From the NCBI GenBank assembly GCA_964555805.1, contig CAZKTX010000001.1:1-55481 (forward strand): a stretch of 55,481 nucleotides of DNA. The letters run 5' to 3'. Origin of the DNA: an uncultured Rikenellaceae bacterium. Lineage in GTDB: Bacteria > Bacteroidota > Bacteroidia > Bacteroidales > VadinHA17. Below the pieces are notes generated by a model that searched no databases, was not told the origin of the DNA, and saw nothing but the letters and a program-made list of their open reading frames with translations. The position numbers were made by a program, and so were the translations under genes. How positions within the stretch are numbered: the first letter of the stretch is position 1; each line of letters starts with the position of its first letter. Positions 149-21,945 of this stretch are shown one piece after another.

Positions 149-1267
149 TTATCTGGTTCCAAAAGCAAGCAAACGCCCGTCCTCCGTCAGAACATAAAAC
201 CTGTCAGCTGTAACTGCAGGAGTGCTGCTGACAGGAGAACCAGCATTGAAGTTCCATATCTTTTTGCCGTCAGTCAAGCCGAGCAAATATACATTGCCAT
301 CGGCACTTCCGAAAAGCACTCTGGAGGGAGTTATTACAGCAGAACCGGTTATTCTTCCGTTTGTACGGAATTTCCAGTTAAGCTTCCCTGTAATTATATC
401 ATAACTGTAAAGGTACTTGTCCTCGTTGCCGATTATAACTGAATTCCTTCCGATTGCCGGTATTGCCACAACCGATCCGGTTGTTTCACCTGCAGGTACT
501 TCCCATGCCAATTTCCCTGTGAGCAGATCTACACAGAAGAAATTGCCGTCATAATCGCCGAAGCAGGCTTTACCTCCGGACAGGGCAGGAGAGGAAGCTA
601 TATAAGTTCCTATTTCAATCGTATCTTTTTCCCTACCTGAATAGGCGTCAACAATTCTGATAAACCCGTCGCAACCTCCGAACACTATATTATTGTTGCT
701 GACAGCCGGGGTTCCGTTTACATAATTCATTGTTTCGAGTTTCCACTGAAGCAACCCGTTCGAAGGGTCAACAGAATGAAGGAAATAATCATAACTCCCG
801 ATAACAATTCCGGATTTTTTTCCGGTTGACCAGGCATTTGCAGAACCTGCTATCTGGCCATCGGTCTTGTATTTCCAGGCCAGTTTTCCGCTGGTCTTAT
901 TTATTGCATGAAGGGTTCCGTCATTCAAACCAATAATGACCTTATCATCATAAACCATGGGAGGAGCTTCAGCCGGTGATCCGCCTTCATAACTCCATTT
1001 TTTCTTTCCGTCGGTTCCAACTGCAATCACTGTACCCTTATCGTTGCCAAAGAAAATCATTCCGCCGCTGACAACGGGCGATGATTTTGTCCGGCCCGTG
1101 GCCGGCAAGCTCCATAGCAGTGATGGTTTTGCAGAAACCTCAATAGTTGTATTTCCTGTAAGGTCGGGCTTGCCCCTGAACACTGTCCACTCCTGATCGG
1201 TAGTCTGTGTAAAGCCAGCCAGTGCGGACGAAAGAAAAAAAAGTAATATGAAGCAATGTTTTTTCAT
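149..1267 (-). CDS. Secreted PQQ-like (BamB-type) beta-propeller repeat protein, paralog 1
   Basis: The ORF track gives 149..1324. The likely start is the internal ATG at 1267 (MKKHCFILLFFLSSALAGFTQ signal peptide), which forms an ATGA overlap with the stop of the upstream gene at 1264. It has the W-x-x-FRG entry motif (EWTVFRGKPDLTGN) and repeated G-x-L-x-A/W...TGK..W blades. Confidence 0.8.
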   Translation of the reverse strand: MKKHCFILLFFLSSALAGFTQTTDQEWTVFRGKPDLTGNTTIEVSAKPSLLWSLPATGRTKSSPVVSGGMIFFGNDKGTVIAVGTDGKKKWSYEGGSPAEAPPMVYDDKVIIGLNDGTLHAINKTSGKLAWKYKTDGQIAGSANAWSTGKKSGIVIGSYDYFLHSVDPSNGLLQWKLETMNYVNGTPAVSNNNIVFGGCDGFIRIVDAYSGREKDTIEIGTYIASSPALSGGKACFGDYDGNFFCVDLLTGKLAWEVPAGETTGSVVAIPAIGRNSVIIGNEDKYLYSYDIITGKLNWKFRTNGRITGSAVITPSRVLFGSADGNVYLLGLTDGKKIWNFNAGSPVSSTPAVTADRFYVLTEDGRLLAFGTR

Positions 1268-2340
1268 GACTCCTTGTAATTGTCCATAAATGCCAGTGCT
1301 CCTGTCGGGCATACCTCCACGCACTTCTTAGCAACTGATGCCGGTATTTCAGCGTAATCAACAGTGAGTGGTTCCGAGATTATTGAAACGAATCCCCTGT
1401 TGATGAAGCAGAGAGCCGGTGCGTCAGTTGAATCTTCCACTGCCCTTACACAGAGTCCGCACTTTATACACTTGGCATTTTCAAAAATCAGGCCGGTTTT
1501 TTTGTTTATCTTTTTTGACACCGGGGCGCTGACAAATTTTCCCTTCGGGTCCTTAAGCGAAAACTTCTCCGCCAGGTCCCTTAACCTGCATCCGCCGGAA
1601 GCGCGGCAGTCGCAATGCATGCAGCTTACAGCCTCTTCTGAAGCATCTTTGAAATCCGTTATTTCCCTGTGTCTCCTGATATCCTGAGGACATTCCTTTA
1701 CCCATTCAAGCTGCTCCTTTTCGCTCAGCGAACCAATTCGGGACGAGAATCTTTTTTTGATATCACCTCCGGAAAAAAAAGGAGAAACCTCATACTTTGC
1801 GGTTTGTGGCAGATTTCTGCTTATAAAAATCCTGATGTTCCGGATTGAAACAGGGGTGTCAATCTTCTTTCTTCTGCAGGCATTCTCACAAAAAGCCTTG
1901 CATGTAATGCAATTCAGTTCGCCACCGTTCATTTCGGACCTGATGAGTTCAGCCGCTTCTGCATGTTCTCCAGCAATGAGGAGCCTGTTCATCAGGGGGA
2001 TGTTGTAACCCATGGGACAAACAATCCGGCATTGTGCCTCGCATTCAGCCCTGTGTTCTGAAAGCAGGAGGCTGACTGCCTTTTTCCTCAGGCTGATAAC
2101 CTCTTCTCCCGAGGCGTCAATATCCATTCCCTCCTGTGCGAGAGCGGAACATGAAGGTATGAAATTATTCTTCTTCCTGTCCCTTACAATGCAAACCATG
2201 CATGAAGAGTAGTGTTCCACACCGTCCCTGTGACATAGCGTAGGAATATCTGTTCCCGTAATGCGCGCCGCCTCCAGGATCGTCTGGCCTTCTGTTACCT
2301 CTACTTCCGTATCGTCAATTCTGATCTTCATCTTTTGCAT
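1264..2340 (-). CDS. Cytoplasmic Fe-S protein with an N-terminal plant-type 2Fe-2S domain (NuoG/HydA N-terminus-like) and C-terminal 4Fe-4S motifs; no catalytic domain
   Basis: The N-terminus KIRIDDTEVEVTEGQTILEAARITGTDIPTLCH...CMVC is typical of NuoG/HndD/HydA N-termini. The C-terminus has CIKCGLCVRAV...CVEVCPTGAL, and there is a central Cys cluster CMHCDCRASGGC. The gene overlaps both neighbours. Confidence 0.75.
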   Translation of the reverse strand: MQKMKIRIDDTEVEVTEGQTILEAARITGTDIPTLCHRDGVEHYSSCMVCIVRDRKKNNFIPSCSALAQEGMDIDASGEEVISLRKKAVSLLLSEHRAECEAQCRIVCPMGYNIPLMNRLLIAGEHAEAAELIRSEMNGGELNCITCKAFCENACRRKKIDTPVSIRNIRIFISRNLPQTAKYEVSPFFSGGDIKKRFSSRIGSLSEKEQLEWVKECPQDIRRHREITDFKDASEEAVSCMHCDCRASGGCRLRDLAEKFSLKDPKGKFVSAPVSKKINKKTGLIFENAKCIKCGLCVRAVEDSTDAPALCFINRGFVSIISEPLTVDYAEIPASVAKKCVEVCPTGALAFMDNYKES

Positions 2341-4750
2341 AAACTAGTTCAATTGCATATTCCGGACAAACAATCCTGCAGTTGTCGCATTTTGTACATA
2401 GTAACTGATCAATCTGATGTTTTTCGTATGGCCTGAACGGAATTGCGTCAACCGGACAATCCTGTGCACATTTAGTGCATCCCGTGCACTTGTCTGTAAT
2501 ATCATATTTTACAAGATCCCTGCATCTCTTTGAAGGGCATATTCCGCGGGTGTGGGCTTCGTATTCCTCCCTGAAATATCTCAGTCCGGTAATCACCGGA
2601 TTGGGGGCTGTTTTACCAAGTCCGCAGAGACTTCCTTTCTGTACATCGTAGCATAGCTTTTCAAGTTCGTCCAGCTCTGCTATCGTGGCTTTTCCCTGGG
2701 TGAGCCTTGTCAGAATCTCAAGCATCTGTTTTGTTCCCACCCGGCAGTAGGTGCATTTCCCGCACGACTGCTTGTGGGTGAATTCAAGGAAGTATCTTGC
2801 CATGTCGACCATGCAGTCGGTGTCGTCCAATACAACCATCCCGCCTGAACCCATCATGGCACCCAACCGTGTAAGCTCCTCATAATCCACAGGAGTATCT
2901 GCAAGACGTTCCGGTATGCATCCGCCTGAAGGTCCGCCGATCTGAACAGCCTTGAATGACCTGCCTTCAGCCACTCCGTGGCCGATTTTTTCAACGATTT
3001 CACGGATTGTCGTGCCCATAGGCACTTCAATGAGTCCTCCGCGGGCAACTTTCCCTGCAAGAGCAAACACTTTGGTTCCCTTGCTTTTTTCGGTTCCGAT
3101 ATTGCTGAAAGAACGGGAACCATTGTTTAAAATCCAGGGTACGAGTGAAAGAGTCTCCACATTGTTTACGAGTGTTGGTCGTCCATTGTAACCTCTGACG
3201 GCAGGATAGGGAGGCCTCAGGTGAGGTGTTCCGCGTTTTCCCTCAAGTGAGGCTATAAGTGCAGTCTCTTCACCGCAAACAAAAGCCCCGGCACCTTCAA
3301 ATACATCTATATCAAATGAAAAATCAGATCCAAATATTTTGTTCCCGACTATTCCTTTTTCCCTGCAAATTTTCAGAGCATTCCTAACTCTTGAAACAGC
3401 AAGAGGATATTCCGCCCTTATGTAGAAAATTCCACGGTCGGCCCCTGTGGCAAATCCGGCAATAAGCATTCCTTCAATTATCCTGAATGAAAAAGACTCA
3501 AGAATCATCCTGTCCATAAAAGCCCCCGGGTCACCTTCGTCACCATTGCAGACAACGTATTTGGGTTTCTCTTTAATCGCCGATGAGATCTCCCACTTCT
3601 TTCCGGTCAGAAATCCAGCTCCTCCGCGTCCTCTCAGGCCGCTTTCGGTAATAACCTGGATCACCTCCTTCGGATTATTTGCAAGCAGCACAGCCTTAAG
3701 GGCCCTGAATCCATCGAGAAGTTCATATTCATCGTATGAATCAGGTCTCATGACACCACCGTTGACAGTGGCAATATGGAATTGTTTACTAAGGAAATTA
3801 TTAAGAGTATTTTCCCTTGCGTCAGCAGGGATATTTACCGGACTGTAAACCATATCATCGGACAGGAAGGAATCAGCAAAATTATTTATCCTGAATCTAA
3901 GTTTCTTATCAAAGGACCTCGGCTTAACATGTTTCAGTATAATTTCTTCAACCTGATCTTTTCTGACATTCGTGTACCGGGAACTTCCCTTGCCGTCAGA
4001 AACGATTTCAAGCAGCGGGGTCTGGTTGCATACACCGACACACCCTACTGGTTTAACTTTAATATTAAGATCATAGTACTCTCGTATGTCGAGCAGTTTG
4101 CCAAGCACGTCCCTGCTGCCGCCTGCAACACAACATGATCCGAGTCCGATCCTTACTTCGGCATCATATTCCTCTTTGACAGACTCCTTTTTCTGAATAC
4201 TCTTTTTCCCGGCAGTATTGAGAAAATCCGTGACAATCTCAATCACCTCTGTAGGTTTCACATGTCCGTAAGTCTTTTCGTCTATCTGGACAACAGGGGC
4301 AAGTGTGCAGCATCCCAGGCAGGCAACTTCCTCAATCGAAAACAGATTGTCGGGGGAGCTGTTCCGGTCTTCAGTAATCTTGAGATCCCTTTTGAAAGCT
4401 TCTGATATAAGTTCCGACCCTTTAACATGGCATGCGGTTCCTGCACAGATTTTTATAGTGTGTTTCCCTGACGGGATATGCCTGAACTGGGAGTAGAATG
4501 TAGAGACCCCCGAAATTTGTCCGGGAGTGATATCGGTTACCTTGCAGATATACTTCAGAGCCTCCGAGGGAAGATAATTAAGCCTTTTCTGGACTTCCTG
4601 CAATACAAGTATCACTTTTTCCTTTCCTGTACCTGTTTCCTTTACAACGGAATCGACAACCGATGTGATTTCATCAACGGAAAGCGCGCCGGAATTGCAG
4701 TTGCAGGTTTCGGTATGTTTAGTTTCCTCTTTCAATTTTGTGAAATGCAA
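2315..4750 (-). CDS. NuoE-like :: thioredoxin-like 2Fe-2S :: NuoF-like (FMN/NADH) :: 2x[4Fe-4S] fusion protein (HndA/HndC or HydC/HydB-like diaphorase)
   Basis: NuoE motifs CAGTACHVKG and CLGCCTLAP. Second Trx-like 2Fe-2S domain: GSCCVAGGS and GCVGVCNQTP. NuoF motifs GRGGAGF, CNGDEGDPGAF and SCGKCTYCR. C-terminal CTGCTKCAQDCP and CTKCDNCRIVCP. The start is non-ATG: TTG at 4750, or TTG at 4735 overlapping the upstream stop. Confidence 0.85.
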   Translation of the reverse strand: MHFTKLKEETKHTETCNCNSGALSVDEITSVVDSVVKETGTGKEKVILVLQEVQKRLNYLPSEALKYICKVTDITPGQISGVSTFYSQFRHIPSGKHTIKICAGTACHVKGSELISEAFKRDLKITEDRNSSPDNLFSIEEVACLGCCTLAPVVQIDEKTYGHVKPTEVIEIVTDFLNTAGKKSIQKKESVKEEYDAEVRIGLGSCCVAGGSRDVLGKLLDIREYYDLNIKVKPVGCVGVCNQTPLLEIVSDGKGSSRYTNVRKDQVEEIILKHVKPRSFDKKLRFRINNFADSFLSDDMVYSPVNIPADARENTLNNFLSKQFHIATVNGGVMRPDSYDEYELLDGFRALKAVLLANNPKEVIQVITESGLRGRGGAGFLTGKKWEISSAIKEKPKYVVCNGDEGDPGAFMDRMILESFSFRIIEGMLIAGFATGADRGIFYIRAEYPLAVSRVRNALKICREKGIVGNKIFGSDFSFDIDVFEGAGAFVCGEETALIASLEGKRGTPHLRPPYPAVRGYNGRPTLVNNVETLSLVPWILNNGSRSFSNIGTEKSKGTKVFALAGKVARGGLIEVPMGTTIREIVEKIGHGVAEGRSFKAVQIGGPSGGCIPERLADTPVDYEELTRLGAMMGSGGMVVLDDTDCMVDMARYFLEFTHKQSCGKCTYCRVGTKQMLEILTRLTQGKATIAELDELEKLCYDVQKGSLCGLGKTAPNPVITGLRYFREEYEAHTRGICPSKRCRDLVKYDITDKCTGCTKCAQDCPVDAIPFRPYEKHQIDQLLCTKCDNCRIVCPEYAIELVYAKDEDQN

Positions 4751-6453
4751 AAAATGTTGTTTCTACTGCGTATATAAATACTCTTGTCGGAAAATGCCGG
4801 AGTGCAGTCTGTAGGTTCCCCAATGGGAGATTCAGCAATCAGATTGTACGCAGGTCCGGCATTAACTATATGCATCAAACCGCTGCGGTCGAGAATGTAA
4901 ACCTTTTCATCAGCAATTATGGGTGAAGCATAGAACTGATCCATGAAGTAATGAGTCCACAGAGTGTCTCCTTTAATTGCATCATAGCAGGCAACATCGC
5001 CCACGCCGGTCGCTATAAAAAGATACTGCTCGTTGGCAACAGGGCTCGAAACATCCGATGTGAACATATTGTCTTCCCAGACGATTGACGGACCCGGACC
5101 CGGTTTTAACGCTGCGAGTCTCGAATAATCAGTGACTGCATAAATATGTGTACTGTTAATTGCAAGCGAAGGGGCCACGTCGCCGGAAAGGACTTCAATG
5201 GCCCAGAGTTCTTTCCCTGTAGCCGGATCAAATGCAGCCACTTCCGGGTTGCCGTTTATAAGTACCTGGGGAGTGCCGTTAAATGTCGCAATCGATGGGG
5301 AAGCCCACGTCGATCTTCCTCTTCTGATAGTTTCCCATTTAAGGTCACCGCTGGAGGTATCAAAACCCATCATCGAGACTTTCTCATCCGAATCGAACTG
5401 TACTATAAGGATACCATCGTGCAAAATTACTGAGCAGGAATATCCGTATACATTTGCCGGGGTTCCAATGTTCTTTCCCCATTTAAGTTTACCATCCATG
5501 TCGAGGCAGACAAGATTGCCGTTTGCGAAAATAGCGCATACAGATTTCCCGTCAGTTGCCGCAGTCGGAGCTGCTATCCCTGTTTCGTTATCAGTCTCAG
5601 GGGTAACATCCGGCTGACCGGGAAGACCGGAGGCCGGAGCAGTCCATAGGATCTCCCCGGTGTTCTTGTCGAAGCAGTAAACTTCACAAACACTCCCCTC
5701 TGCACCGGTGAGAAACAGTCTGTCGCCCCATATAACAGGGGAACTTTTTCCGCTTTTTGGGACGCCCGATTTCCATTTTATGTTGGTTCCGCTTTCTGCG
5801 TTCCATTCAACCGGATAACCTGTACCGCCTGCAATTCCCCTTCCATCCTGACCACGGAAATGAGGAAAGTTGACAGGATCGGGGGAAAAGGCTGCGGCCG
5901 ATACTGATAGTGATGCGGCATCCTTATCTCTTTTCTTATCACTCTTTTCGGCTTTTGCGACCCTTTTCCCGGACAGATCAGGCAAATCCTTTCTCAGAAT
6001 GAAAGAAGAGATTATTGCAGCCACAGTCAGGACAGCCACAGTACCCGCAAGGTATTTTGCATAGCGGGCCTTATCCGTGACCTGATCAGATTTTTCTCCC
6101 GGAAGCGAAGGCAGGTTTTTCTCACTCCCGGCTATTAGCCTCTGGCACAGAACAAATATAACAGCACCGGCAATCAGCAGCCAGGAACCCGTTTCAACCT
6201 GCCTTCGGGATGAAAAATAGGCTTTTCGCGCCATCAGATCGAGCGCCCTGACCTGTTCAGCCTTAACGGCATTTTCATGATCCTTGTCAAATTCTTCCTT
6301 CACCGATACAATTGCGGGATTGTCAAGAGGATCGAGAGCCTTCAGCTGGACAATACTCAAAAGCATTGTAAGTGCCACGATGAGGGTAAAAATTCCTGCC
6401 CCGGTGCTAATCCCTCTGAGAATCTTCAGATCCTTTTCGTCAAGCTTTATCAT
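4732..6453 (-). CDS. Membrane-anchored (about 3 TM helices) PQQ-like beta-propeller protein, paralog 2
   Basis: Hydrophobic helices GAGIFTLIVALTMLLSIVQL, SWLLIAGAVIFVLCQRLIA and YLAGTVAVLTVAAIISSFIL, followed by a charged linker. Then the FPHFRGQDGRG entry motif and propeller blades. ATG at 6453. Confidence 0.8.
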   Translation of the reverse strand: MIKLDEKDLKILRGISTGAGIFTLIVALTMLLSIVQLKALDPLDNPAIVSVKEEFDKDHENAVKAEQVRALDLMARKAYFSSRRQVETGSWLLIAGAVIFVLCQRLIAGSEKNLPSLPGEKSDQVTDKARYAKYLAGTVAVLTVAAIISSFILRKDLPDLSGKRVAKAEKSDKKRDKDAASLSVSAAAFSPDPVNFPHFRGQDGRGIAGGTGYPVEWNAESGTNIKWKSGVPKSGKSSPVIWGDRLFLTGAEGSVCEVYCFDKNTGEILWTAPASGLPGQPDVTPETDNETGIAAPTAATDGKSVCAIFANGNLVCLDMDGKLKWGKNIGTPANVYGYSCSVILHDGILIVQFDSDEKVSMMGFDTSSGDLKWETIRRGRSTWASPSIATFNGTPQVLINGNPEVAAFDPATGKELWAIEVLSGDVAPSLAINSTHIYAVTDYSRLAALKPGPGPSIVWEDNMFTSDVSSPVANEQYLFIATGVGDVACYDAIKGDTLWTHYFMDQFYASPIIADEKVYILDRSGLMHIVNAGPAYNLIAESPIGEPTDCTPAFSDKSIYIRSRNNIFCISQN

Positions 6454-7729
6454 TACTAGTCTTATTTAAATGTACAGGGCAATACTGAAAGCATTTTCCA
6501 CAACTGTAGCATTTGCCCTTATGCGGAACATATCCTGTTCTTCTTGTGCGTGTTGACAGCGAGACAAGGCTGAGCCCGAACGATGTTCCGAGAAACAATC
6601 CCATCCAGATGGATCCTTTCCGGAACCGCTCATGGATTTTTGTTTCCTTTTCAAACAGTTCGGCTTCCGTTGTGCCTGCTTCCTTAAATCCCTGGGCTGC
6701 CAGCGAAACAGCCGGGATTCCATTCTCTGCTTCTGCTCTGATTTCCCTGGCCAGCCTTACATCACTGTTCAGTCCGGTGAGAACAGGGGAAAGAGTTCCG
6801 AAAATTATCGCACCTGCTGCTGCGAAGAACGGTACAAGCAGGATATATGTAAGAAATCTTTTTCTCTCCTTTTCGGGGTCTGCCACTGGGCGCACCACAT
6901 CCGAGGGAAGAATTGCATCGTACGGGCAGACATCCTCGCACAGCCTGCAATTAGTGCATTCGGCCGGTGTTATTGTCAGGTGCTTGTTTGAAAACCTTGA
7001 AAATATATTCAGAAGCACACCATAGGGACATAAATATCTGCAATATGGTCTGTTGATGAAAATCCCGGCAACAAGCAGCAAGGCTCCGAAGATCACCATA
7101 GTGTATGGTGCATCGAGCCTGAATATGCCTACAAACGGATCGTAACGGCATATAAGGAACTGGCTTTCAGTTGCGGCCGAAAGAACCGATATTCCAAGAT
7201 AAATGAAAGGAACCGATATCATCACCGACTCAACAACCTTAGGCAGTTTGACTGTTCTGAAACCAACAAGCTCCTGAATGGCTCCGAGAGGGCAGACTCC
7301 CGCACAGAATACCCGGCCGAACAAGAGGGCAAAGAGCAGAGGTATCATGAAGAAAAGGAGAGCCGTAAGAGGGATTGAGTATCCTGAGTTGAAAAGGGCA
7401 AGGGCAACATTCTGAACCGATCCGACGGAACATATGCATCCTTCCCTGAAGAATCCGAAATAGGCGAGAGAAAATACCGAGAGCCAGAGGAGTCCCTGAC
7501 GTGACCTGACTTTTAGAGCAAGCCATGCTGCAACGGATAGAGCAACGATAAGCACTGCGAGATCGATATATTCCCAAACAGGAGCTCTGTCAGCGGGTAC
7601 CTGATGCTCGGGATAGACATACCCGGATGTAAACTCCGGCCTTGGAAATCTTTCCTGTGCAAAAAGCACCGCATGCCAGGCAAGCATGAGGAACAACAGG
7701 ATATATGGCAATTTCTTTTTCACCTTCAC
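6440..7729 (-). CDS. Polytopic membrane Fe-S protein of the NapH/NosR/MauN/CcoG type
   Basis: About 8 hydrophobic segments. Membrane-proximal Cys motifs CAGVCPLGAIQE and CRYLCPYGVLL, plus two classical ferredoxin motifs CTNCRLCEDVCP and CYSCGKCFQYCP. GTG start at 7729 directly abuts the upstream TAG stop. Confidence 0.7.
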   Translation of the reverse strand: MKVKKKLPYILLFLMLAWHAVLFAQERFPRPEFTSGYVYPEHQVPADRAPVWEYIDLAVLIVALSVAAWLALKVRSRQGLLWLSVFSLAYFGFFREGCICSVGSVQNVALALFNSGYSIPLTALLFFMIPLLFALLFGRVFCAGVCPLGAIQELVGFRTVKLPKVVESVMISVPFIYLGISVLSAATESQFLICRYDPFVGIFRLDAPYTMVIFGALLLVAGIFINRPYCRYLCPYGVLLNIFSRFSNKHLTITPAECTNCRLCEDVCPYDAILPSDVVRPVADPEKERKRFLTYILLVPFFAAAGAIIFGTLSPVLTGLNSDVRLAREIRAEAENGIPAVSLAAQGFKEAGTTEAELFEKETKIHERFRKGSIWMGLFLGTSFGLSLVSLSTRTRRTGYVPHKGKCYSCGKCFQYCPVHLNKTSNDKA

Positions 7730-8293: not shown

Positions 8294-8472
8294 CTTTGTG
8301 AGTATTTACCGCAGTCGTTGTCGTCGGAGCAGAGTCCTTTTCCCGCACAGGTTGAGCAGTCTTTCCCGCTTACAGTCCGTGATCCGAGTGCAAGGGCAAG
8401 AAAAGCAAGAAAAGCAAGCAAAAGATTCCTTGCAAGTTTCCTTAGAAACTCAGGTCTTGTCAACTTATTCAT
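8290..8472 (-). CDS. 60-aa signal-anchored Cys-rich peptide (CxxC-x5-C-x5-C), unknown function
   Basis: MNKLTRPEFLRKLARNLLLAFLAFLALALGSRTVSGKDCSTCAGKGLCSDDNDCGKYSQR. ATGA overlaps at both ends (8469/8472 and 8290/8293) argue for a translated, coupled gene. TRPEFLRK resembles a degenerate Tat motif. Confidence 0.5.
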   Translation of the reverse strand: MNKLTRPEFLRKLARNLLLAFLAFLALALGSRTVSGKDCSTCAGKGLCSDDNDCGKYSQR

Positions 8473-13141: not shown

Positions 13142-13146
13142 ATCAG

Positions 13147-14187: not shown

Positions 14188-14236
14188 CTGATTCTGTTTA
14201 TCCTTTGCCAAACCGGATTAGCGGCCAGCAATGATT

Positions 14237-15529
14237 TTATCGCGCCACCTTGACACATTTAATCTGACCCTGATCCCTTATCAGGAGTTTACCACCAGCA
14301 AGTGCAATAGGAGCCCAGTTCTGGGTTGCAAACCTGGCATCAGCGCCTTCGGCAACATTCAGTAGTTTTGCTGAAGCAATCTGCTTGTAACCCGATGGAT
14401 CCGGCTCAATGAGGTAAAGAGAACTGGCTCCGTCTGTTGCAAGCAGAAGGCCGTCGACAAGTATCATACTGCCTTTGTCAAAGTTGGGAGCCCTCATTGT
14501 TTTCCACTTTATCTCTCCATTCATATCCATACAGACAAGACCTTCCCGCTTGCTGTTTGTGGAAAACTGTCCGTAAAAATAGCCATTATGAAGTATGGGA
14601 GGTTTTGTGTGTTCACCAAAGTCATTATGTTTGAAGAGTTCTGTCACAGTGAATGAGCCATCAGACTTCTTATCTACTTTAATCATAACAGTTCCAAGTT
14701 CATACCCGCCAGCCACAAGAATCTTATTCTGACCGGCATCAACAGCGCTTGCGACAGGAATACGGCAATTCCAGTCTGCATATTCCCACAATTTCTTTCC
14801 GTCCTGGGGTTTGATCCCGACTATTTTACCCATTTCGCTGTCCCTCTGCGATGCTGTTACCATCACAACATGATCCTCACCGGAAATCTTTATTATTGCA
14901 GGACTAACATAACCTGCAGCTCCAAGTGAGGGAGTTTTCCATTTGACCGCACCCGTAAGCTTGTTGTATGCAACAACACCAGCCTGGGGAGCCTGTGATG
15001 CAACTATAACCATATCGCCATAAACAAGCGGACACTGCGAAATGGCCCATGTAGGCAGTTTCTCTCCTCCGTAATCGGTCCAGATATTTTTGTTCCAGAC
15101 CGGCTTGTGAGTGTTGATATCAATGCAATAAAGATCACCGTTATGTCCTACTGAATATACAAAATTTCCGTCAACTGTAGGTACATATCTTGAACCCGGA
15201 AACATAACGGACCCCGGAGCGCTGTAACTGAATTTCCAGAGTTCCTTACCCGTGTTGAGGTCAAAACATCTGAGAGTTTCACCTACTTTGTCATCCCTGT
15301 CGAGGAGATATACTTTCCCGGCTTTAATTGCCGGTCCTCCAAAACCTGGTCCCACGTTTGCAGTCCAGAGCACTTCAGGTCCGCCCGCAGGCCATGTGCG
15401 CAGAATGCCCTTTTCAGCCGACTTGCTGTTCCTGTCAGGTCCCAGGAACTGAGGCCAGTCCTGAGCAAGTAAATTCGATATGCTGAGCATTGCAACCAGC
15501 ACTATGGCTAATAATTTTCCTCTTTTCAT
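14237..15529 (-). CDS. Secreted PQQ-like beta-propeller protein, paralog 5
   Basis: Signal peptide MKRGKLLAIVLVAMLSISNLLAQ. DWPQFLGPDRNS entry motif and propeller blades. Its stop is 25 nt upstream of the kinase gene. Confidence 0.8.
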   Translation of the reverse strand: MKRGKLLAIVLVAMLSISNLLAQDWPQFLGPDRNSKSAEKGILRTWPAGGPEVLWTANVGPGFGGPAIKAGKVYLLDRDDKVGETLRCFDLNTGKELWKFSYSAPGSVMFPGSRYVPTVDGNFVYSVGHNGDLYCIDINTHKPVWNKNIWTDYGGEKLPTWAISQCPLVYGDMVIVASQAPQAGVVAYNKLTGAVKWKTPSLGAAGYVSPAIIKISGEDHVVMVTASQRDSEMGKIVGIKPQDGKKLWEYADWNCRIPVASAVDAGQNKILVAGGYELGTVMIKVDKKSDGSFTVTELFKHNDFGEHTKPPILHNGYFYGQFSTNSKREGLVCMDMNGEIKWKTMRAPNFDKGSMILVDGLLLATDGASSLYLIEPDPSGYKQIASAKLLNVAEGADARFATQNWAPIALAGGKLLIRDQGQIKCVKVAR

Positions 15530-15708: not shown

Positions 15709-17514
15709 CTATACAACACAATTACATTTTATGTATTTCCTCAGGGCTTCAACATTGTAAATGACCGGGTACATTTGTTCATCATACCACAGCATGGCGA
15801 AGTAAAGTCCTATTGGCGCTGCATTAATATTATTATTTTCAGGAAGCCAGTTGATGCCTCTCAAGGACTCAACAGGGTGTACTTCTGCAAGGGCGCTTAC
15901 TGCCAGCGAAGTCTCCTCCACCGAGCCTTCGATCCCTGACTTCCCGCCCCAGCTTCCGTCGCTGTTCTGCTGTTTCAGAAGAAATTCATGTGCTTTTCTT
16001 ACCATGGTTTCTATCCTGTTGATTTTATCTTTTCCGGTACGTTTACATGCAAGGGAATCGCTAAGGTAGATACATACCTTGGCAGTGCCGTAAACCGGAT
16101 TTGTTTTGTCAGCAGTCAGCTGGTTGCCAAACCATAACGGCAGCCATGATCCATCTTCCGACTGATTCTTTTCAAGGTAGGTTGCAGCCTTTGAAATTGT
16201 CCTGTTTATGGTGGCAAGCAGTTTTTTGTCCATTTTCTCATGAAGGACCTCAACCGATTTTAACAGGGCAAGAAGTGCATGTCCGGTCAGATCGGCACAA
16301 CTTTGGTCAAAAGGTAGTTTGCCCCAGCCACGACAGAATGTGGGGAATCCTCCGTCGCTGTTCTGAAGGCCGGTTAGCCACCTGCAGCCATTTTCAACTG
16401 CATCAATCTCGGCCTTCTTTCCTGAGAAGAGAAGCAGAAGAGCAAGAATAGCACCCGGAGTATCATCAGCATCGGGAACAGAGCCTGAATAGCTTGTCCA
16501 GCCCCAACCTCCAGGATTTGCCCCATTGAAAGGATGTTTTGTTTTATACTGAAGTTTCAGAAGGTGATTTCTGAGGGTGTCTGTTTCCTTTCGGTTCAAT
16601 ACAGTATTAATCTCTTCCCCCATGGCCTTGATTGCAAGGGTTGTCACCCATGTCGACAGATCTGTGTCAATAGGCCATCCGCCGTCATCCCGTTGCTGGT
16701 TCCGGAGAAAACCAAGTCCCTTACGAATAGTATTATTATCGGTCTCCCCGCATTTAATCAGACACATAGCGACAAAGCCCGTCAGCGGTATTGCTTCAAG
16801 AAAACCGCCGCTTTCGGGCAGAAGCATGTCTAATTTCTTTATGGCAGGTCTGATTGATTTCTCACGCAAATGTCTGATTCCGGGGAAACCTTTTTTCCTG
16901 TTACGATGAAGATATATTCCGACTCCGATGAGGGCAGGCAGGGCGTAGCTTACAACGCGAAGATTAAGGAACCTGTAAAAAGAGGCGGGCAGCAGGGTAA
17001 GTTCAAAGGGCAGACGGGGTATCATCTCAAGCGTCGACTGCGGCAATACGCCGCAAAGAGTCAGCATCGACAATATCGGAAGTGAAAATGTGTAATCTTT
17101 TCCGTAAACATTGAGAATCGAAGTGACGACTTCTGCCGATCCGATATTGATTCCCCTGCCGGCCAGCCATTTCTCCATTGACGCCAGTACATGGTTTCCG
17201 GAATAACCCTTCCGGCAGAAGAAAATTGCTGAATATGATAGGAGGGTTGTGCTCAGGTTGCTTACCGACTCCGGAGTATCACCGTAGCCTCCGTCTGCAT
17301 TTATACTGCTGCAAAGCCATGTAAAACCTTTCTCAACTCTTGGTAAATCAGAGGGATCACCCGACAATTTCAATGCAACGATCGATACTGCGGTGGAAAG
17401 TGCACTGGTCGATAACCTGCCTGTCCAGAATCCGTCGGAGTTCCGTTTAGATGTAAGGTTAGTAACAAGTTGGTCGTATCTTTGAGTAATTCTATCCATG
17501 TCGGTTTTAATCAT
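15709..17514 (-). CDS. Class II terpene cyclase of the squalene-hopene cyclase superfamily (DxDD type)
   Basis: Catalytic-type motif VPDADDTPGA (DxDDT). Several QW-like repeats: QQNSDGSWGG, LQNSDGGFP, NQSEDGSWLP, QQRDDGGWP, RNSDGFWTG. No signal peptide. Confidence 0.8.
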   Translation of the reverse strand: MIKTDMDRITQRYDQLVTNLTSKRNSDGFWTGRLSTSALSTAVSIVALKLSGDPSDLPRVEKGFTWLCSSINADGGYGDTPESVSNLSTTLLSYSAIFFCRKGYSGNHVLASMEKWLAGRGINIGSAEVVTSILNVYGKDYTFSLPILSMLTLCGVLPQSTLEMIPRLPFELTLLPASFYRFLNLRVVSYALPALIGVGIYLHRNRKKGFPGIRHLREKSIRPAIKKLDMLLPESGGFLEAIPLTGFVAMCLIKCGETDNNTIRKGLGFLRNQQRDDGGWPIDTDLSTWVTTLAIKAMGEEINTVLNRKETDTLRNHLLKLQYKTKHPFNGANPGGWGWTSYSGSVPDADDTPGAILALLLLFSGKKAEIDAVENGCRWLTGLQNSDGGFPTFCRGWGKLPFDQSCADLTGHALLALLKSVEVLHEKMDKKLLATINRTISKAATYLEKNQSEDGSWLPLWFGNQLTADKTNPVYGTAKVCIYLSDSLACKRTGKDKINRIETMVRKAHEFLLKQQNSDGSWGGKSGIEGSVEETSLAVSALAEVHPVESLRGINWLPENNNINAAPIGLYFAMLWYDEQMYPVIYNVEALRKYIKCNCVV

Positions 17515-18349
17515 TCAGAGCGCCAAGTGCAAGCAGTCCGTAAAAAGTATATTCAATATCTGGATCCGGATCAAGCGGATGGCCTGAGAAACCGCCATCT
17601 CTGAATAGTGAATCGGCAAAATCGAGCGAGTCCGGCTTAATTTCCCTGAGGTCATATCCGGCAAACCTGAGTGCATAAAGGGCCACGGCGGTAGAAAGAA
17701 GGTCTGACAAAGGAGTTGACATTGTTGCCCTGAAACCACCCTTTCCGTCATAAAATGTCATTAATACTTTAATGAGTTTATCCACAGGCTCCCTGAAACT
17801 CTTGCTCAGGACCAGTGAGGCTGCAGTTACGGGGCAGGGGAGAGTTTCATTTCCAATAAAAGACCTGAGAATTTGTCTGATCCGGAACAAGCCCCTGAAA
17901 TCCCTCAGGTAATAAAAACTCATCAGGCTCAGGAATAATCCGTAAAGTTGTTGATCTTTCACTTCTGCAGACTGCCTCAATTTTGCGCCGAAGGATTTTC
18001 TGAATGCCTTTGCCTGTCCGCTGACAGCCGACAAAACTGCAGCACAATGGAGATACACTCCCTCCGGTTCCTTCCGGCTGATCTCATTGCTTACATAAGG
18101 CCAGACCAGTGAGCACTCCTGTTTCATTTCAAGCGCATCAGCAACAAACCAGCCAAAAAGAGTATAATAAAGATCAGCATTTCCGGCCCTGTCCTCAAAC
18201 CCGCCCGACTGTGTCTGTGAAGTTCTGACGTAATTTCTCAGGCTGGCAATAAATCCGGGGTCAAGAAGGTTAAAAGAAAGCTTCAGTATTCTTTCAGGGC
18301 TTTCCCCTTCAAATTTCTTAAGATAAGGAGCCGCAAGAAGCCTAAACAT
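17507..18349 (-). CDS. Short alpha/alpha-toroid protein with prenyltransferase-beta/squalene-oxidase-type repeats
   Basis: Repeats QTQSGGFEDRAGNADLYYT, DGKGGFRATMSTPLSDLLSTAVALYAL and FRDGGFSGHPLDPDPDIEYTFYGLLAL. No DxDD motif. ATG 18349 is preferred over GTG 18355. It overlaps both neighbours. Confidence 0.6.
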   Translation of the reverse strand: MFRLLAAPYLKKFEGESPERILKLSFNLLDPGFIASLRNYVRTSQTQSGGFEDRAGNADLYYTLFGWFVADALEMKQECSLVWPYVSNEISRKEPEGVYLHCAAVLSAVSGQAKAFRKSFGAKLRQSAEVKDQQLYGLFLSLMSFYYLRDFRGLFRIRQILRSFIGNETLPCPVTAASLVLSKSFREPVDKLIKVLMTFYDGKGGFRATMSTPLSDLLSTAVALYALRFAGYDLREIKPDSLDFADSLFRDGGFSGHPLDPDPDIEYTFYGLLALGALND

Positions 18350-19958
18350 ATTCACTGAAAGTTTTTCCCACTATCTCATTCAGGGCGAGTTTCAGCCTCA
18401 GGTTGGAGATTTCCTCCACGCACTTGTATGTTCTGTCCAGATACCCTGCAAGCATAGTTGTTATCTGTGCCCGTATATTATATTTTTCTGCAATGGGATG
18501 CAGTTCCTTCATACTTTTGTTTTTCAATGCTCCGGCAATAATACTGAGGTCAGAAACCCCGGCTTGTCCGGCCAGAAGTGAGATCAGAACCGACTGGTCA
18601 TCAAAGGATGAAAACCCATTTGTGACTGTGAAATCCTCAAGATCATCCTTCATCTGGTATGCAACTCCGATCAAGTCGCTGAATTGTTCAAGCAGATCCA
18701 GTGTTTTTTTATCGGAGCCAGCCGCAATAGCTCCAACCTGCAAGGCCACTTTGAAAGCGGCAGATGTCTTGTTCCTGAAAACCTCAATTATTTCATCCAT
18801 TGTCAGTATCCTTCCGTCGCGGCGGGCCATCAGCTCTTCGCCCTGTCCGACCGACATTGCCCTGTGTCCCTGGGCAACTGCTTTAAAGCACTCACCCATT
18901 GGACCGTGAGACAGACCGCTTTCAGAGAGCAGTCTGTACCCTTCACCCATGAGGAGATCACCCAGGTTGATTGCAACAGGTATTCCGTAACGGGTGTGAA
19001 TTGTCTCCTTGCCGTACCGGAACGAATCATTGTCCTCAATATCGTCATGAACCAGGGAAGCTTTATGGAAACACTCCACCGACATTGCCAGATGAGCCAG
19101 CATATCCTGATCCGGATTACTGTTGAATGCCTCATAGGCAAGCACTGTAAGCAAAGGACGTATCCTCTTGCCTCCGGCCATCAGCATCTCCCTTACAATC
19201 TTTCCTGTTGCGGAACCGGCAAAGCGGGTCATGCCGTCAATTCTGGTCTCAGTGAAGAGTGCAGAAGTCTTTTCTTTCAGATTATTGATATTCAATAATT
19301 TAAAATCAGAATTTCTTTCAATGTAATTTATTTCCTCACTAACCCAGAGAGCATCGGCCTTTGTATCCTTGCATCCGCATGTAACAAGGGGAATTCCGAT
19401 GGCCGGAATCGAGTATTTTGTAACCGAACTGAACATTTTCCTGAGCACATCCATGCATCCCACGCCAACAACTGCATCAACTTTACCGCTTTCAACCAGG
19501 CGGGTGGCAATTGTAGTGCCCTCCGCCACGATTGTAATGTATCCAAGGTCCTCGGCTTCCTTCAGGAACCCGCAGATATTGCAGTTTCCGCATTCACTGC
19601 ACAAAAGTCCAAGTTCATCTTCCACGCCTGTGCAGAGTTTACTGTTCCTGAGGCACATCGGAAGCAAAAGCATACGGCGTTCGAATTGTATGGAACCAAC
19701 TATTGGCCGCCATATTTCATTTCCCCCGCAAACCATTACAAATGCCTTGTGACTTTCGTCCCAGTTGTTTTCCGCAATAAGCATATCAGCGTAAACAGCC
19801 AGCTGATCGTATGAGACAGGAGGCATTATCTTCTTTTCGGTGAAGAATTGATGAACTTTCCTCCTGATCTCCTCACGCTGCTCATGCACCAATGGAACAA
19901 CAAGAGGCATTACTGCTTCCTGTTCTACTTCCTTAATATGCTGATTTGTATCATCCAT
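18342..19958 (-). CDS. Fusion of a Cys-rich DUF116-like domain with a trans-polyprenyl diphosphate synthase
   Basis: C-terminal half carries the first aspartate-rich motif (FARM) LVHDDIEDND and the second (SARM) QMKDDLEDF. N-terminal half has RMLLLPMCLRNSKLC...LCSECGNCNICGF...VVGVGC, which resembles DUF116 as I recall it. ATG 19958 is preferred over the track's TTG at 19994. Confidence 0.75.
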   Translation of the reverse strand: MDDTNQHIKEVEQEAVMPLVVPLVHEQREEIRRKVHQFFTEKKIMPPVSYDQLAVYADMLIAENNWDESHKAFVMVCGGNEIWRPIVGSIQFERRMLLLPMCLRNSKLCTGVEDELGLLCSECGNCNICGFLKEAEDLGYITIVAEGTTIATRLVESGKVDAVVGVGCMDVLRKMFSSVTKYSIPAIGIPLVTCGCKDTKADALWVSEEINYIERNSDFKLLNINNLKEKTSALFTETRIDGMTRFAGSATGKIVREMLMAGGKRIRPLLTVLAYEAFNSNPDQDMLAHLAMSVECFHKASLVHDDIEDNDSFRYGKETIHTRYGIPVAINLGDLLMGEGYRLLSESGLSHGPMGECFKAVAQGHRAMSVGQGEELMARRDGRILTMDEIIEVFRNKTSAAFKVALQVGAIAAGSDKKTLDLLEQFSDLIGVAYQMKDDLEDFTVTNGFSSFDDQSVLISLLAGQAGVSDLSIIAGALKNKSMKELHPIAEKYNIRAQITTMLAGYLDRTYKCVEEISNLRLKLALNEIVGKTFSEYV

Positions 19959-21129
19959 AAGCTCCCATTCCAAAAAATGCAGTCCGTTTTGCAAACCTGT
20001 AAATTAAGTTCCTCTCGGGAATAGCAGGAATCGATCCATGACTCGGCAGACGGGGTGCTTTCTCCAGAGCATCCAAATATTCAGGCCTGTTCGAAGTGTT
20101 AAGAGCATGATGCTTCTCACTGAAAGCTTTCACCCAGGCAGGATCTTCCATAAGTACGCAACCCTTTGTTTTAAGATGTATCTGATCCCGGAAATCCCTC
20201 AGAAACTCAGAACCATCATAAGGAGATTTCAGATCGCCCGGGTTAATTCTGTCGGCAGCAATCTGAAGAACAGGACAGGGTTCAACATAACCGGCAGCAT
20301 TAATATGATGGCTCAATCCGTCAGCTGCCGGGCAAAATGGTTCACCCTTTGCACTCCAGTACGAATCGATCAGTACAATCGGAAACCTGGTTCTTCCATC
20401 CACAAGAAACTTTCTAAGCCTCAGAATCTGATCCTGTTCAAGTGCAAGCTCATAGTTGGGCTTACTGCCAGCCGGACGATAGATATAGTACCAGAGGTAA
20501 ACGACACCCAGGTCATGAAGCTTATTCACAAATTCATCTGACAGGGCCATCTCAATATTCGATTTGCAAACACTGATTGCAACTCCTGTTATAAGTTTCT
20601 CCGCCACGGAAGTGCGTATAGCTTCAATAGTTCTGTTATATATGTTATTTCCTCCGCGGCGGACGTCAGCAATAATTTCATCCCCTTCAAGACTTATCAA
20701 TGGTGTAACATTGCCGGCTTTACGGAGTTCCGAGGCAATAGCCCTTGTAAGCATTGTGCCGTTTGTAAAGAGCTGGAAATAGCAATCCTGATGCTTTCTG
20801 AAAATTTCAATCAGATCGGGATGCATCAGAGGTTCTCCTCCAAGAATCCCGTTGAAGTACGATCCGTGCCTTTTCCCGTCCTCAATAACCGAATTGATCT
20901 TTTCAAGAGGCATATAATCGGGCTTACCGGCAGCCGTGACCCAGCATCCCTGGCACCGGAGATTGCAGTCGTTTGTAACAGAAATAAATTGAAAAGCCGG
21001 GAAAGGTAACCCATTCTTAACTCTCCTTCGGAATTTGCTGAAACCAAGAAGACCTTTCAATCCCATATTTATCAGGAATTTTCTCCGGCATTTTCCGTCA
21101 GCATTAATGAAGTTTTTATATATCGACAT
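19951..21129 (-). CDS. Radical SAM enzyme with C-terminal auxiliary-cluster-like (twitch/partial SPASM) cysteines
   Basis: CX3CX2C motif in VTNDCNLRCQGCW. GGEPL SAM-binding motif. C-terminal CPAADGLSHHINAAGYVEPCP (C-x14-G-x4-C). Confidence 0.85.
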   Translation of the reverse strand: MSIYKNFINADGKCRRKFLINMGLKGLLGFSKFRRRVKNGLPFPAFQFISVTNDCNLRCQGCWVTAAGKPDYMPLEKINSVIEDGKRHGSYFNGILGGEPLMHPDLIEIFRKHQDCYFQLFTNGTMLTRAIASELRKAGNVTPLISLEGDEIIADVRRGGNNIYNRTIEAIRTSVAEKLITGVAISVCKSNIEMALSDEFVNKLHDLGVVYLWYYIYRPAGSKPNYELALEQDQILRLRKFLVDGRTRFPIVLIDSYWSAKGEPFCPAADGLSHHINAAGYVEPCPVLQIAADRINPGDLKSPYDGSEFLRDFRDQIHLKTKGCVLMEDPAWVKAFSEKHHALNTSNRPEYLDALEKAPRLPSHGSIPAIPERNLIYRFAKRTAFFGMGAYG

Positions 21130-21138
21130 AATTTCCTT

Positions 21139-21945
21139 TTATATTGATGATGACTCATCCCGTGCCCTGTCCCTCTCCGAAATTGCCTTTTTCATAGCCT
21201 CTTTTCTGATTATCGACTGCCTTTTAAGTTTACGTCCCTGCAGGGCCTTATAAATATCATTGCCTAAAAATTCTTCAATATCATGTGCCTGCCTCTGCTG
21301 CTCCGAGTGTTCGTCAATCTCATCCGAACCGCCTATGGCGCCTCCATGTCTGTATTTCGGGAAGATTATGGCAGTGGCAGGACAAATTCTTGCGCAGGCA
21401 GGACAATTGTTCTTGCAGTTTTCTGGATTAACAACCGTAACACGGCCTTCGTCTTTCCTGTAAACCCCGAAAAGGCAGAAATCGGCACACTGTCCGCATG
21501 AGGTGCATCGCGAGTAATCGATAAGCGGATACCATGAAGGCCATTCCGATCCTTCCGTGATATCGGTAATAATAGGAGTTCCTTTTTGGTTTCCGCAGAA
21601 TTTGTCAATCAGGCCGGCAGCTTCTGGAAAAGATGAATCAATAAGATTAATGTGATTGAACCCGGCAACGGGGATATTTATATCCCCGGCCTGCCCGAAC
21701 AGAATATCCATACTCCTTCTGTGGCAGCCAATTACAAGACAATCATCGCCTGTTGAAAACAGATCAGCCAGTTTAATTTTCTTTTTTGCAGCCAACCCGC
21801 ACAGGTCCGACAACCTTGTGACACGGGAGGGTAAGACACCAAGATGTCTTTCAATATCCCTCAGTAATCCGGCATCGATCCTCTCACCACTGCAATTGCA
21901 GAAAATAATATGTTTGCCGTCAATCAGCCCTGAAATATTTCCCAT
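21139..21945 (-). CDS. 4Fe-4S dicluster ferredoxin-domain protein with Cys-containing N-terminal domain and charged C-terminal tail
   Basis: CTSCGQCADFC and CKNNCPACARICP motifs. N-terminal IIFCNCSG...VIGCH. It is the first gene of the 5-gene operon. Confidence 0.7.
   Translation of the reverse strand: MGNISGLIDGKHIIFCNCSGERIDAGLLRDIERHLGVLPSRVTRLSDLCGLAAKKKIKLADLFSTGDDCLVIGCHRRSMDILFGQAGDINIPVAGFNHINLIDSSFPEAAGLIDKFCGNQKGTPIITDITEGSEWPSWYPLIDYSRCTSCGQCADFCLFGVYRKDEGRVTVVNPENCKNNCPACARICPATAIIFPKYRHGGAIGGSDEIDEHSEQQRQAHDIEEFLGNDIYKALQGRKLKRQSIIRKEAMKKAISERDRARDESSSI

Follow-up and report, generated by a model that had tools for sequence, protein, structure and literature searches.

The window analysed here, a stretch of 55,481 nucleotides from an uncultured Rikenellaceae bacterium (assembly GCA_964555805.1, contig CAZKTX010000001.1), carries a minus-strand gene block (g18 to g01 in reading direction, Table 1) that joins two independently conserved cassettes. 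Judged by gene order across genomes, the redox cassette, made up of g10-g01 and the GT4, ABC and FtsX genes that follow, is an independent predicted operon spanning several phyla, and the terpenoid cassette g18-g14 is an independent, widely conserved five-gene unit. The original prediction had described either one lipid-linked envelope redox system or two novel modules flanking a two-component system. Two cassettes are indeed present, while an indivisible unit is not, and their recurrent neighbourhood makes a functional, though facultative, coupling likely. Tentatively, we propose that the coupled cassettes provide electrons for making, tailoring or exporting a cyclic polyprenoid glycolipid of the envelope, a reading that we regard as possible rather than probable.

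The redox cassette was traced in a GTDB scan of one genome per species, in which an alignment of the NapH-like protein g05 served as query and matched 210 species genomes (65-95% identity). Most redox-locus counts given below come from the best 80 of these 210 genomes, all of them Bacteroidales/Bacteroidota metagenome-assembled genomes (MAGs) from digesters, fens and sediments, which were compared by a tblastn matrix of the 18 window proteins; terpenoid-locus conservation was derived from the best 80 of more than 587 metagenome loci. Locus flanks extended to at most 10 kb, open reading frames (ORFs) in the loci (labelled L001 and so on) were called by a simple procedure, and taxon names are the depositors' own. 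MAG contigs may be fragmented, and L170 contains frameshift-like gene fragments. The nearest relatives are uncultured Bacteroidales MAGs whose NapH-like protein is up to 95% identical. Where locus length suffices, the order g09-g08-(g07)-g06-g05-g04-g03-g02-g01 is fixed in the 80 Bacteroidales species loci, and the identical order recurs in the Aminicenantes-named L166 and the Gemmatimonadetes-named L167 and L169. The terpenoid order g18-g17-g16-g15-g14 is kept from 73% down to ~34% identity.

Both cassettes meet in three gene orders. The terpenoid cassette precedes the redox cassette in the window and in L005-L010, L014 and L170, sits between the leading propellers and g09 in L096, L110 and L111, and lies downstream of g03-g02 and propellers in L085, L123, L125, L136 and L151. 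In a neighbour-joining tree of g16 the linked loci fall into at least five separate deep clades, and the adjacency recurs at 35-45% protein identity. The terpenoid genes of L096 stand inside the redox cassette, on one strand and with short spacers. In L085 the terpenoid cassette is followed by CobW, GT4, FtsX and ABC genes, L136 runs on into glycosyltransferases, a pyruvyl transferase and a Wzx-type flippase, and GT4 orthologues recur beside both cassettes. Of the 37 terpenoid-anchored loci whose flanks reach 6 kb or more, 6 contain specific redox orthologues and 8 any propeller or redox gene; according to a rough estimate, ~1% of windows would carry redox orthologues by chance. The synteny check suggested with the original prediction went against unity, as the modules are mostly found apart, but coupling stays plausible since adjacency recurs across five or more deep clades and in three gene orders, well beyond chance expectation.

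The layout of the block is largely as predicted. The ORF listing of the window contains 18 consecutive minus-strand ORFs between 149 and 21945 with only two gaps above 100 nt (12158-12385, 228 nt; 15530-15708, 179 nt), and all remaining junctions are gaps of 0-25 nt or overlaps of 4-44 nt if the longest-ORF starts are taken. The ATGA overlaps at 1264/1267, 8290/8293 and 8469/8472 can be seen in the sequence itself, the one at 1264/1267 presuming that g01 starts with the ATG at 1267, which matches its homologues. Every domain call of the prediction was reproduced with Pfam and NCBIfam, including five PQQ_2-type propellers and one NHL propeller. Only the end of the block at 149 had to be revised: a 19th gene begins at position 52, and the block is cut by the window edge because the start of a GT4 glycosyltransferase is encoded at 52-1. 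Its translation, MKIVYLITGSGGSFYCG, is the same as the GT4 N-termini of loci L003-L009. GT4 is found 3' of g01 in 54 of 82 related redox loci and an ABC ATPase in 56 of 82, the order in relatives being GT4, ABC ATPase and a large FtsX-type permease; GT4 also follows the redox cassette in the Gemmatimonadetes-like L169, in L085 and in L157.

Table 1. Genes of the minus-strand block, in order of position in the window
Feature	Position	Strand	Basis
GT4 glycosyltransferase, 19th gene (N-terminus; leaves the window)	1..52	-	translation MKIVYLITGSGGSFYCG
g01, secreted PQQ_2/BamB-like beta-propeller, signal peptide	149..1267	-	Pfam PQQ_2 E=2.5e-36
g02, BfuA-like Fe-S connector	1264..2340	-	Pfam Fer2_4, Fer4_20, Fer4_Nqo3
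g03, NuoE+NuoF fusion flavoprotein, 811 aa	2315..4750	-	Pfam 2Fe-2S_thioredx, Complex1_51K, NADH_4Fe-4S, C-terminal dicluster
g04, PQQ_2 propeller	4732..6453	-	Pfam PQQ_2 E=3.4e-38
g05, NapH/NosR-like membrane polyferredoxin	6440..7729	-	Pfam Fer4_5 x2, Fer4
g06, Tat-exported periplasmic polyferredoxin, NapG-like design	7730..8293	-	SRRDFVRK Tat motif, Pfam Fer4 families
g07, 60-aa conserved protein	8290..8472	-	Tat-like TRxEFLKK, one hydrophobic helix, C-x2-C-P-G-x-G-x-C-x-G-x3-C tail
g08, membrane-anchored six-bladed NHL propeller	8469..9428	-	profile search of PDB: NHL-repeat structures only
g09, anchored eight-bladed propeller, signature protein of the cassette	9385..10845	-	family conservation, AlphaFold2 (AF2) model
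g10, anchored PQQ_2 propeller, head of the redox cassette	10826..12157	-	Pfam PQQ_2 E=1.5e-27
g11 + g12, LytTR response regulator + membrane His_kinase (PF06580)	12386..14211	-	Pfam
g13, secreted PQQ_2 propeller paralogue	14237..15529	-	Pfam PQQ_2 E=3.3e-23
g14, class II (DxDD) terpene cyclase, divergent SHC-like type, 601 aa	15709..17514	-	Pfam SQHop_cyclase_N + _C
g15, 282-aa alpha-alpha-toroid (prenyltransferase-repeat) protein without DxDD	17507..18355	-	Pfam Prenyltrans E=3.9e-7
g16, DUF116 Cys-rich domain::trans-polyprenyl diphosphate synthase	18342..19994	-	Pfam DUF116, polyprenyl_synt E=1.4e-42
g17, radical SAM enzyme, CxxxCxxC + three or four more conserved Cys	19951..21129	-	Pfam Radical_SAM
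g18, 2x[4Fe-4S] ferredoxin, first terpenoid gene	21139..21945	-	Pfam Fer4 families

By sequence, the cytoplasmic module of the NuoEF-like g03 and the NuoG/HoxU-like g02 is a Bfu-type core with the C and B subunits fused and the A subunit truncated, because both proteins best match cognate A and B subunits of the same complexes (8oh5, 9bov and 9n5u). The original prediction had overlooked this affinity, as it had the SHC-like clade of the cyclase (see below). The matches are 8oh5_B (E=1.6e-201) and the Bfu-type B subunits 9n5u_B and 9bov_B for g03, which is syntenic in 75 loci, and the StnABC/NfnABC-type A subunits 8oh5_C, 9bov_A and 9n5u_A for g02. The domains of g03 run in the order 2Fe-2S_thioredx, a second thioredoxin-like 2Fe-2S region, Complex1_51K, NADH_4Fe-4S and a Fer4 dicluster, and the protein thus holds the NuoE-like [2Fe-2S] and NuoF-like FMN/NADH parts of a Bfu core, the latter extended by one more [2Fe-2S] at its N-terminus and a 2x[4Fe-4S] at its C-terminus. 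It appears equivalent to the BfuC+BfuB core and is the predicted entry point for NAD(P)H. The clusters of g02 are an N-terminal [2Fe-2S], a GltD-type 2x[4Fe-4S] and a NuoG-type one, without a catalytic domain in the window; remote orthologues of ~525 aa have an additional Rossmann FAD/NAD(P) segment. As in the Bfu enzymes NfnABC and StnABC (PMC9304861), a NuoF-like B subunit (E ~1e-200 for g03) goes with a NuoE-like C subunit, here fused to it, the A subunit has its counterpart in the first 175 residues of g02, and the inventory of Fe-S/FMN domains is equal. In contrast to these enzymes, B and C form one chain, g02 carries Fe-S clusters only and lacks the GltD-type NADPH site or formate-dehydrogenase-like domain, and the partners are NapH-like membrane and periplasmic proteins instead of soluble ferredoxin and NADP.

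The membrane protein g05 has about six transmembrane segments, CX3CP-type motifs and two or three [4Fe-4S] motifs, while the 16 Cys of g06, sufficient for four [4Fe-4S] clusters, are invariant at every position in 79 loci. This pairing of a Fer4_5/CX3CP-type membrane polyferredoxin with a Tat-exported four-cluster ferredoxin encoded beside it is shared with NapGH and NosGH (NosR, MauMN). In Nos systems NosGH/NosR deliver electrons to NosZ, an enzyme that has a beta-propeller too, and the gene clusters include an ABC transporter. Unlike these systems, g05 has a C-terminal extension, an extra transmembrane segment and a third cluster motif, electrons apparently come from a cytoplasmic NAD(P)H flavoprotein and not from menaquinol, and the acceptors would be PQQ_2 and NHL propellers without known cofactor. 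The scores of g05 stay below the cut-offs of TIGR02163 (NapH/MauN, 60.6 vs 213), NF007013 (54 vs 234) and NosR (52 vs 1000), a sequence search of the PDB found no relative of it, and the NapG model of NCBIfam gave no match to g06. No terminal enzyme of the NapA, NosZ or MauAB type (molybdopterin, cupredoxin or amine dehydrogenase domains) was found in the block or in the 80 related loci. Domain content and hydropathy are what suggests the NADH-to-periplasm chain named in the original prediction.

The small ORF g07 is, judging from its conservation, a real gene because it is kept with four invariant Cys in nearly all related loci. Its homologues of 55-65 aa stand between the NHL and NapG-like genes in nearly all Bacteroidales loci, and the one in L096 has a genuine twin-arginine (RR) motif. 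The mature part comprises ~25 aa only and g07 was matched by no family model; possible roles are those of a small subunit that binds a metal or a cluster and of a hitch-hiker partner in export.

All six propellers of the block have, according to hydropathy, a signal peptide or membrane anchor at the N-terminus; these are transmembrane anchors or plain signal peptides and not lipoprotein signals. The most constrained protein of the set is g09, with 67-95% identity within Bacteroidales, 44-49% to Aminicenantes, Gemmatimonadetes and Cloacimonetes homologues, 53-60% in a further comparison between phyla, and the invariant residues C140, H162, H184, C187, C224 and H266. It represents a distinct family of 251 representative clusters at E<=1e-30. 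The closest folds to its AF2 model (pLDDT 88) are tetrathionate hydrolase, BamB and PQQ-ADH (TM-score ~0.55, identity ~15%), and a profile search of the PDB gave a marginal quinoprotein match only; such structural matches identify a fold for the model and no function. The g09 model shares with BamB, PQQ dehydrogenases and tetrathionate hydrolase the eight-bladed fold (TM-score ~0.5-0.6) and Pfam PQQ_2, but differs from them in sequence (13-16% identity), in its own invariant Cys and His residues and in its Fe-S-chain context. Assignments of block propellers as BamB or PQQ dehydrogenase were rejected, the scores being at most 141 vs 285 for TIGR03300 and at most 73 vs 480 for TIGR03075. In g08 the motif F-C-G-C-C-x-P-x-H (residues 242-250, nt 8679-8705) is 99-100% conserved in 80 loci, and the true start of this gene is probably the internal ATG at 9383. 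Hydropathy predicts three N-terminal transmembrane segments for g04 (syntenic in 79 loci), with the propeller on the periplasmic side. The final propeller of the conserved cassette, g01, is syntenic in ~66 loci at 38-91% identity with conserved H183, C218 and C264, and g10 occurs in about half of the loci, is often duplicated and differs in copy number among genomes.

Some loci show further variation around the propellers. In the Cloacimonetes-named L168 (3574-10645) a g09-family propeller without Fe-S chain directly follows UppS (cis-prenyltransferase), GT4, AA_kinase-family, GT2 and methyltransferase genes, an independent hint that ties the g09 family to polyprenyl or glycan chemistry. Two propellers are fused into a single protein of 808-883 aa in L123, L125 and L136, large ankyrin-repeat proteins (~620-650 aa) stand among the leading propellers of the two distant loci L096 (3080-5035) and L110 (2223-4076), and L110 has a DGC-domain protein between cyclase and g09. 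In L001/L017 (16424-18943) g01 and GT4 were called as one 839-aa protein with a short hydrophobic linker; this may be a genuine propeller-transmembrane-GT4 fusion or a read-through or assembly artefact and was not used as evidence.

Active terpenoid enzymes are supported because the DxDD, first and second aspartate-rich (FARM and SARM), DUF116 Cys and CxxxCxxC motifs are conserved. The cyclase g14 has its catalytic VPDADDT at residues 346-352 (DADD at nt 16462-16473), and VPDxDDT and QW-type motifs are at least 90% conserved among 38 homologues, while the best PDB match, the squalene-hopene cyclase (SHC) of A. acidocaldarius, reaches just 68 bits. Its likely partner subunit is g15, because this gene always lies upstream of the cyclase gene and overlaps it (by 8 nt in the window); it co-occurs in 43 terpenoid loci, and g15 may have replaced the homodimer contact of the cyclase. 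More than 4000 homologues share the DUF116::polyprenyl synthase architecture of g16, and FARM HDDIED and SARM DDLED (DDxxD) are conserved in 76 homologues, together with eight conserved Cys in DUF116. Since the chain-length positions -5/-4 are Ala/Ser, the chain-length rules for trans-prenyltransferases predict a long all-trans polyprenyl diphosphate of C30 or longer as product; HepT-type long-chain synthases of the Bacillus C35 pathway have the same Ala/Ser pattern. DUF116 itself was predicted to be an electron-transfer domain and was noted as a fusion to polyprenyl synthetase in Pirellula staleyi (Makarova et al., PMC5898192). A structure search with the model of this domain, an alpha/beta fold, gave no significant PDB neighbour. 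In g18 conservation is confined to the dicluster part, and the N-terminal domain is variable.

The cyclase g14 probably belongs to an SHC-like clade whose function is unknown and which is described from PVC, FCB, Spirochaetota and Acidobacteriota with conserved catalytic residues, a genomic context pointing to a precursor other than squalene, and an unusually fast evolution of the SHC-type dimer surface (PMC7306690, PMC12324236). Measured against these descriptions, g14 has the length (~600 aa within 550-700 aa), the retained catalytic acid motif DxDD and the weak similarity to SHC of a divergent homologue, and it shares the non-squalene context and the FCB/PVC/Acidobacteriota-type spread. The distribution found here, with Bacteroidota, one Chloroflexota-named match and Planctomycetes via Psta_0175, is compatible with that of the clade. 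In contrast, the accessible text of both papers contains neither the DUF116::synthase/radical SAM/ferredoxin cassette nor a link to a redox/propeller operon (PMC7306690, PMC12324236).

Some terpenoid loci differ in composition. Stand-alone loci (L116, L152, L103 and others) have recurrent upstream genes for a CobW-type GTPase (10 loci), a GcvH-like lipoyl-carrier (4) and a NifS-like cysteine desulfurase (4). In place of the usual ~392-aa radical SAM protein, L123, L125 and L136 encode one of ~512-531 aa, which the comparison did not identify as homologous to g17.

The junction between the cassettes is variable. The two-component system has a LytS/LytR-type layout, in which a receiver and LytTR regulator adjoins a PF06580 kinase, and the LytR and BtsR equivalog models stay below cut-off. 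The comparison did not bear it out as a conserved part of the block: it adjoins the cassette in ~10 close relatives only, with or without terpenoid genes, and is absent in L010, L170 and all distant loci. The propeller g13 is patchy in the closest relatives, being present in L007 and not in L005, L009 and L010. Because the two-component system is confined to the ~10 close relatives, it does not count as core, and g13-g11 are a lineage-specific addition, plausibly of regulatory function.

From gene content, conservation, synteny and motifs we infer the following electron path, substrate, product and physical association of the encoded proteins. The FMN of g03 would oxidise NAD(P)H, and the NapH-like g05 would receive the electrons at its cytoplasmic clusters through the Fe-S chain of g03/g02, which might serve the ferredoxin g18 as well. 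From g05 they would reach the four [4Fe-4S] clusters of Tat-exported g06 and then the membrane-anchored periplasmic propellers; the likely candidates for the catalytic or acceptor role are the strongly conserved g09 and g08, whose metal-type CxCC..H motif is invariant. If the Bfu logic (PMC9304861) applies, an exergonic periplasmic branch could drive an endergonic ferredoxin branch for radical SAM and DUF116 chemistry. On the terpenoid side, g16 would synthesise the all-trans polyprenyl diphosphate, whose predicted length is C30 or more, the DxDD enzyme g14, probably with g15, would cyclise it, and radical SAM g17 with ferredoxin g18 would tailor the cyclised product. The redox cassette may thus give low-potential electrons to the Fe-S and radical SAM steps of the terpenoid cassette and, across the membrane, to periplasmic tailoring, while GT4 might glycosylate and ABC/FtsX export a cyclic polyprenoid glycolipid.

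Several observations weigh against this proposal. Of 50 Bacteroidales loci in which the sequence upstream of g09 spans 6 kb or more, only 6 have the terpenoid genes, 35 of 80 Bacteroidales loci show an AsnB boundary without them, redox and propeller genes are absent from the reach of 29 of 37 terpenoid loci, and in a Prolixibacteraceae genome the terpenoid cassette stands by itself. No catalytic domain was recognised in the propellers, and the best structural neighbours of g09, tetrathionate hydrolase and BamB, are not lipid enzymes. To our knowledge, electron transfer from the cytoplasmic clusters to the periplasm has been established for no member of the NapH family. Since g02 of the window lacks the FAD/NAD(P) segment of its distant orthologues, bifurcation is doubtful here. 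Scans of the block for sigma-70 promoters and terminators remained at shuffled background. The intergenic spaces hold a lone Bacteroidetes-type -7 box (TAnnTTTG; 21950-21957, just upstream of g18), a single match that is too weak for defining transcription units, and Rfam revealed no RNA element within the block. A bolder form of the proposal, which we consider unlikely, assumes one ancient envelope machine of FCB, PVC, Acidobacteriota and Gemmatimonadota, with a bifurcating Bfu core that splits the electrons of NAD(P)H, a cyclic non-squalene polyprenoid lipid of a new class and the metallo-propellers g08 and g09 using this lipid. One branch would then reduce ferredoxin for radical SAM and DUF116 and thereby lead to the product of the SHC-like clade, and the other would run via the NapH/NapG-like wire to g08 and g09, which would modify or use the lipid in the periplasm or outer membrane.

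As an alternative to coupling, the cassettes might be unrelated neighbour systems that share a genomic hot spot at the operon head, where cassettes, propellers and the two-component system come and go. Each cassette is conserved alone and usually apart from the other, the junction is variable with the two-component system, g13 and extra propellers patchy among close relatives, and the same AsnB-bounded site is occupied in L170 but not in L001 or L002. A mere hot spot would, however, hardly account for an adjacency that persists at 35-45% identity, spans five or more deep clades and takes three gene orders, for the embedding in L096 and for GT4 orthologues that accompany both cassettes; we hold this explanation to be somewhat unlikely. 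Quite unlikely, in our view, is another reading, in which the redox cassette reduces or detoxifies a soluble or mineral compound in the periplasm, for example an inorganic sulfur compound or a metal ion, and the terpenoid link is incidental or merely supportive. The propellers would then be its catalytic subunits, cofactor-less or metal-dependent, and would be fed by a NapGH/NosGH-like wire with NAD(P)H and not quinol as donor. Such a function would fit the best fold match of g09, since tetrathionate hydrolase is a cofactor-less eight-bladed periplasmic enzyme, as well as the invariant Cys/His motifs of g08 and g09 and, as general knowledge has it, the parallel design of NosZ with NosGH/NosR and ABC transporter. 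A CobW-type metallochaperone and a SaoE/SO_0444-type Cu/Zn efflux gene adjoin some redox cassettes and point in the same direction. The fold match is nevertheless distant (TM-score only ~0.55, ~15% identity), cupredoxin, molybdopterin and haem domains were not found, and GT4 and ABC/FtsX are constant companions, with isoprenoid or glycan contexts recurring in L168 and L136.

Diverged versions of known systems, namely an hpn or C35 sporulenol cluster beside a Nap, Nos, Rnf or NADH-dependent hydrogenase-type complex, are hardly credible. A weak family likeness exists in the SHC Pfam domains, the NapH subfamily model, NuoEF and the HoxU/HydA N-terminal domains, but equivalog scores are far under the cut-offs (97/431, 43/225, 61/213, 71/470), as seen for g14 with the hopene cyclase model TIGR01507 (96.9 bits, cut-off 431), g17 with HpnH TIGR03470 (43.4 bits, cut-off 225) and the NuoG model (71, cut-off 470). 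HpnCDE/Sqs, YtpB, NapA, NosZ, an H-cluster domain and a cytochrome motif are lacking. With the hpn and C35 sporulenol pathways (HepST, YtpB, SqhC) the block shares an SHC-superfamily cyclase near a radical SAM protein, comparable to HpnH, but it has no HpnCDE, Sqs or YtpB, its synthase is fused to an Fe-S domain, and a toroid protein and a ferredoxin are added.

The hpn cluster was rejected as an assignment, as the hopene-cyclase and HpnH models were far under cut-off and no squalene synthase is present; the Nap, Nos, Rnf, Hnd/HydABC and C35 sporulenol readings were discarded because NCBIfam cut-offs were not reached and required partner genes were missing. SQS_PSY and amine-oxidase domains were found neither in the block nor in the terpenoid loci examined. 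The original prediction had stated that no characterised system matches, and this agrees with our searches: 0 of 18 proteins reach any NCBIfam equivalog cut-off, and HMM searches and structure searches with the g09 and DUF116 models, which could have placed the propellers and Fe-S proteins in a known pathway, did so for none. It had likewise named several absences, and in the 18 proteins the CxxCH haem motif does not occur, and Pfam and NCBIfam gave no terminal reductase, H-cluster or class I terpene synthase and no molybdopterin or cupredoxin domain.

The building blocks are all from known families, and the SHC-like clade is already recognised as functionally unknown in the literature. New here are the fixed operon of Bfu-type, NapH-like, NapG-like and propeller genes, the five-gene terpenoid cassette and their recurrent coupling, in that neither the redox operon nor the complete terpenoid cassette turned up in a literature search. 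What the SHC-like clade uses as substrate and makes as product is an acknowledged gap in terpenoid evolution and biomarker geochemistry (PMC7306690, PMC12324236). The terpenoid cassette offers a candidate precursor, the long all-trans polyprenyl diphosphate from the DUF116::synthase. The redox operon would, for the first time, connect an NAD(P)H flavoprotein of Bfu/Nfn type with a transmembrane and periplasmic Fe-S chain of NapGH type, and it would provide the first functional context for a large, highly conserved group of "BamB/PQQ-like" propellers whose annotation is wrong in thousands of genomes from anaerobes. Its carriers, uncultured Bacteroidales, abound in digesters, fens and sediments, so that the system may be relevant to the physiology of cell envelopes at the community level.

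Outside the block, a phosphotriesterase-family gene (PF02126; 22097-23200, plus strand) lies divergent from g18. It marks a conserved boundary of the locus because homologues recur beside the block in related loci, namely in 12 related redox loci as well as in L086 and L170. The cumulative GC skew has its minimum at ~22000, where gene orientation switches from minus to plus; the skew merely follows the coding strand. Further downstream, in the region 23262-34034, a cluster of six tandem plus-strand paralogues of ~480-560 aa with sulfatase-type C/S-x-P-x-R motifs is followed by a minus-strand radical SAM/SPASM protein with SEC-C motif that looks like an anaerobic sulfatase-maturating enzyme (32676-34034); with the GFO/IDH/MocA oxidoreductase and the GH3 glycosidase that come after it, these genes look like a sulfated-glycan utilisation island. 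At 39388-42543 (plus strand) the window encodes a 1051-aa protein with Reg_prop repeats and Y_Y_Y, in which a C-terminal SpoIIE-type PP2C phosphatase replaces the customary kinase and AraC output.

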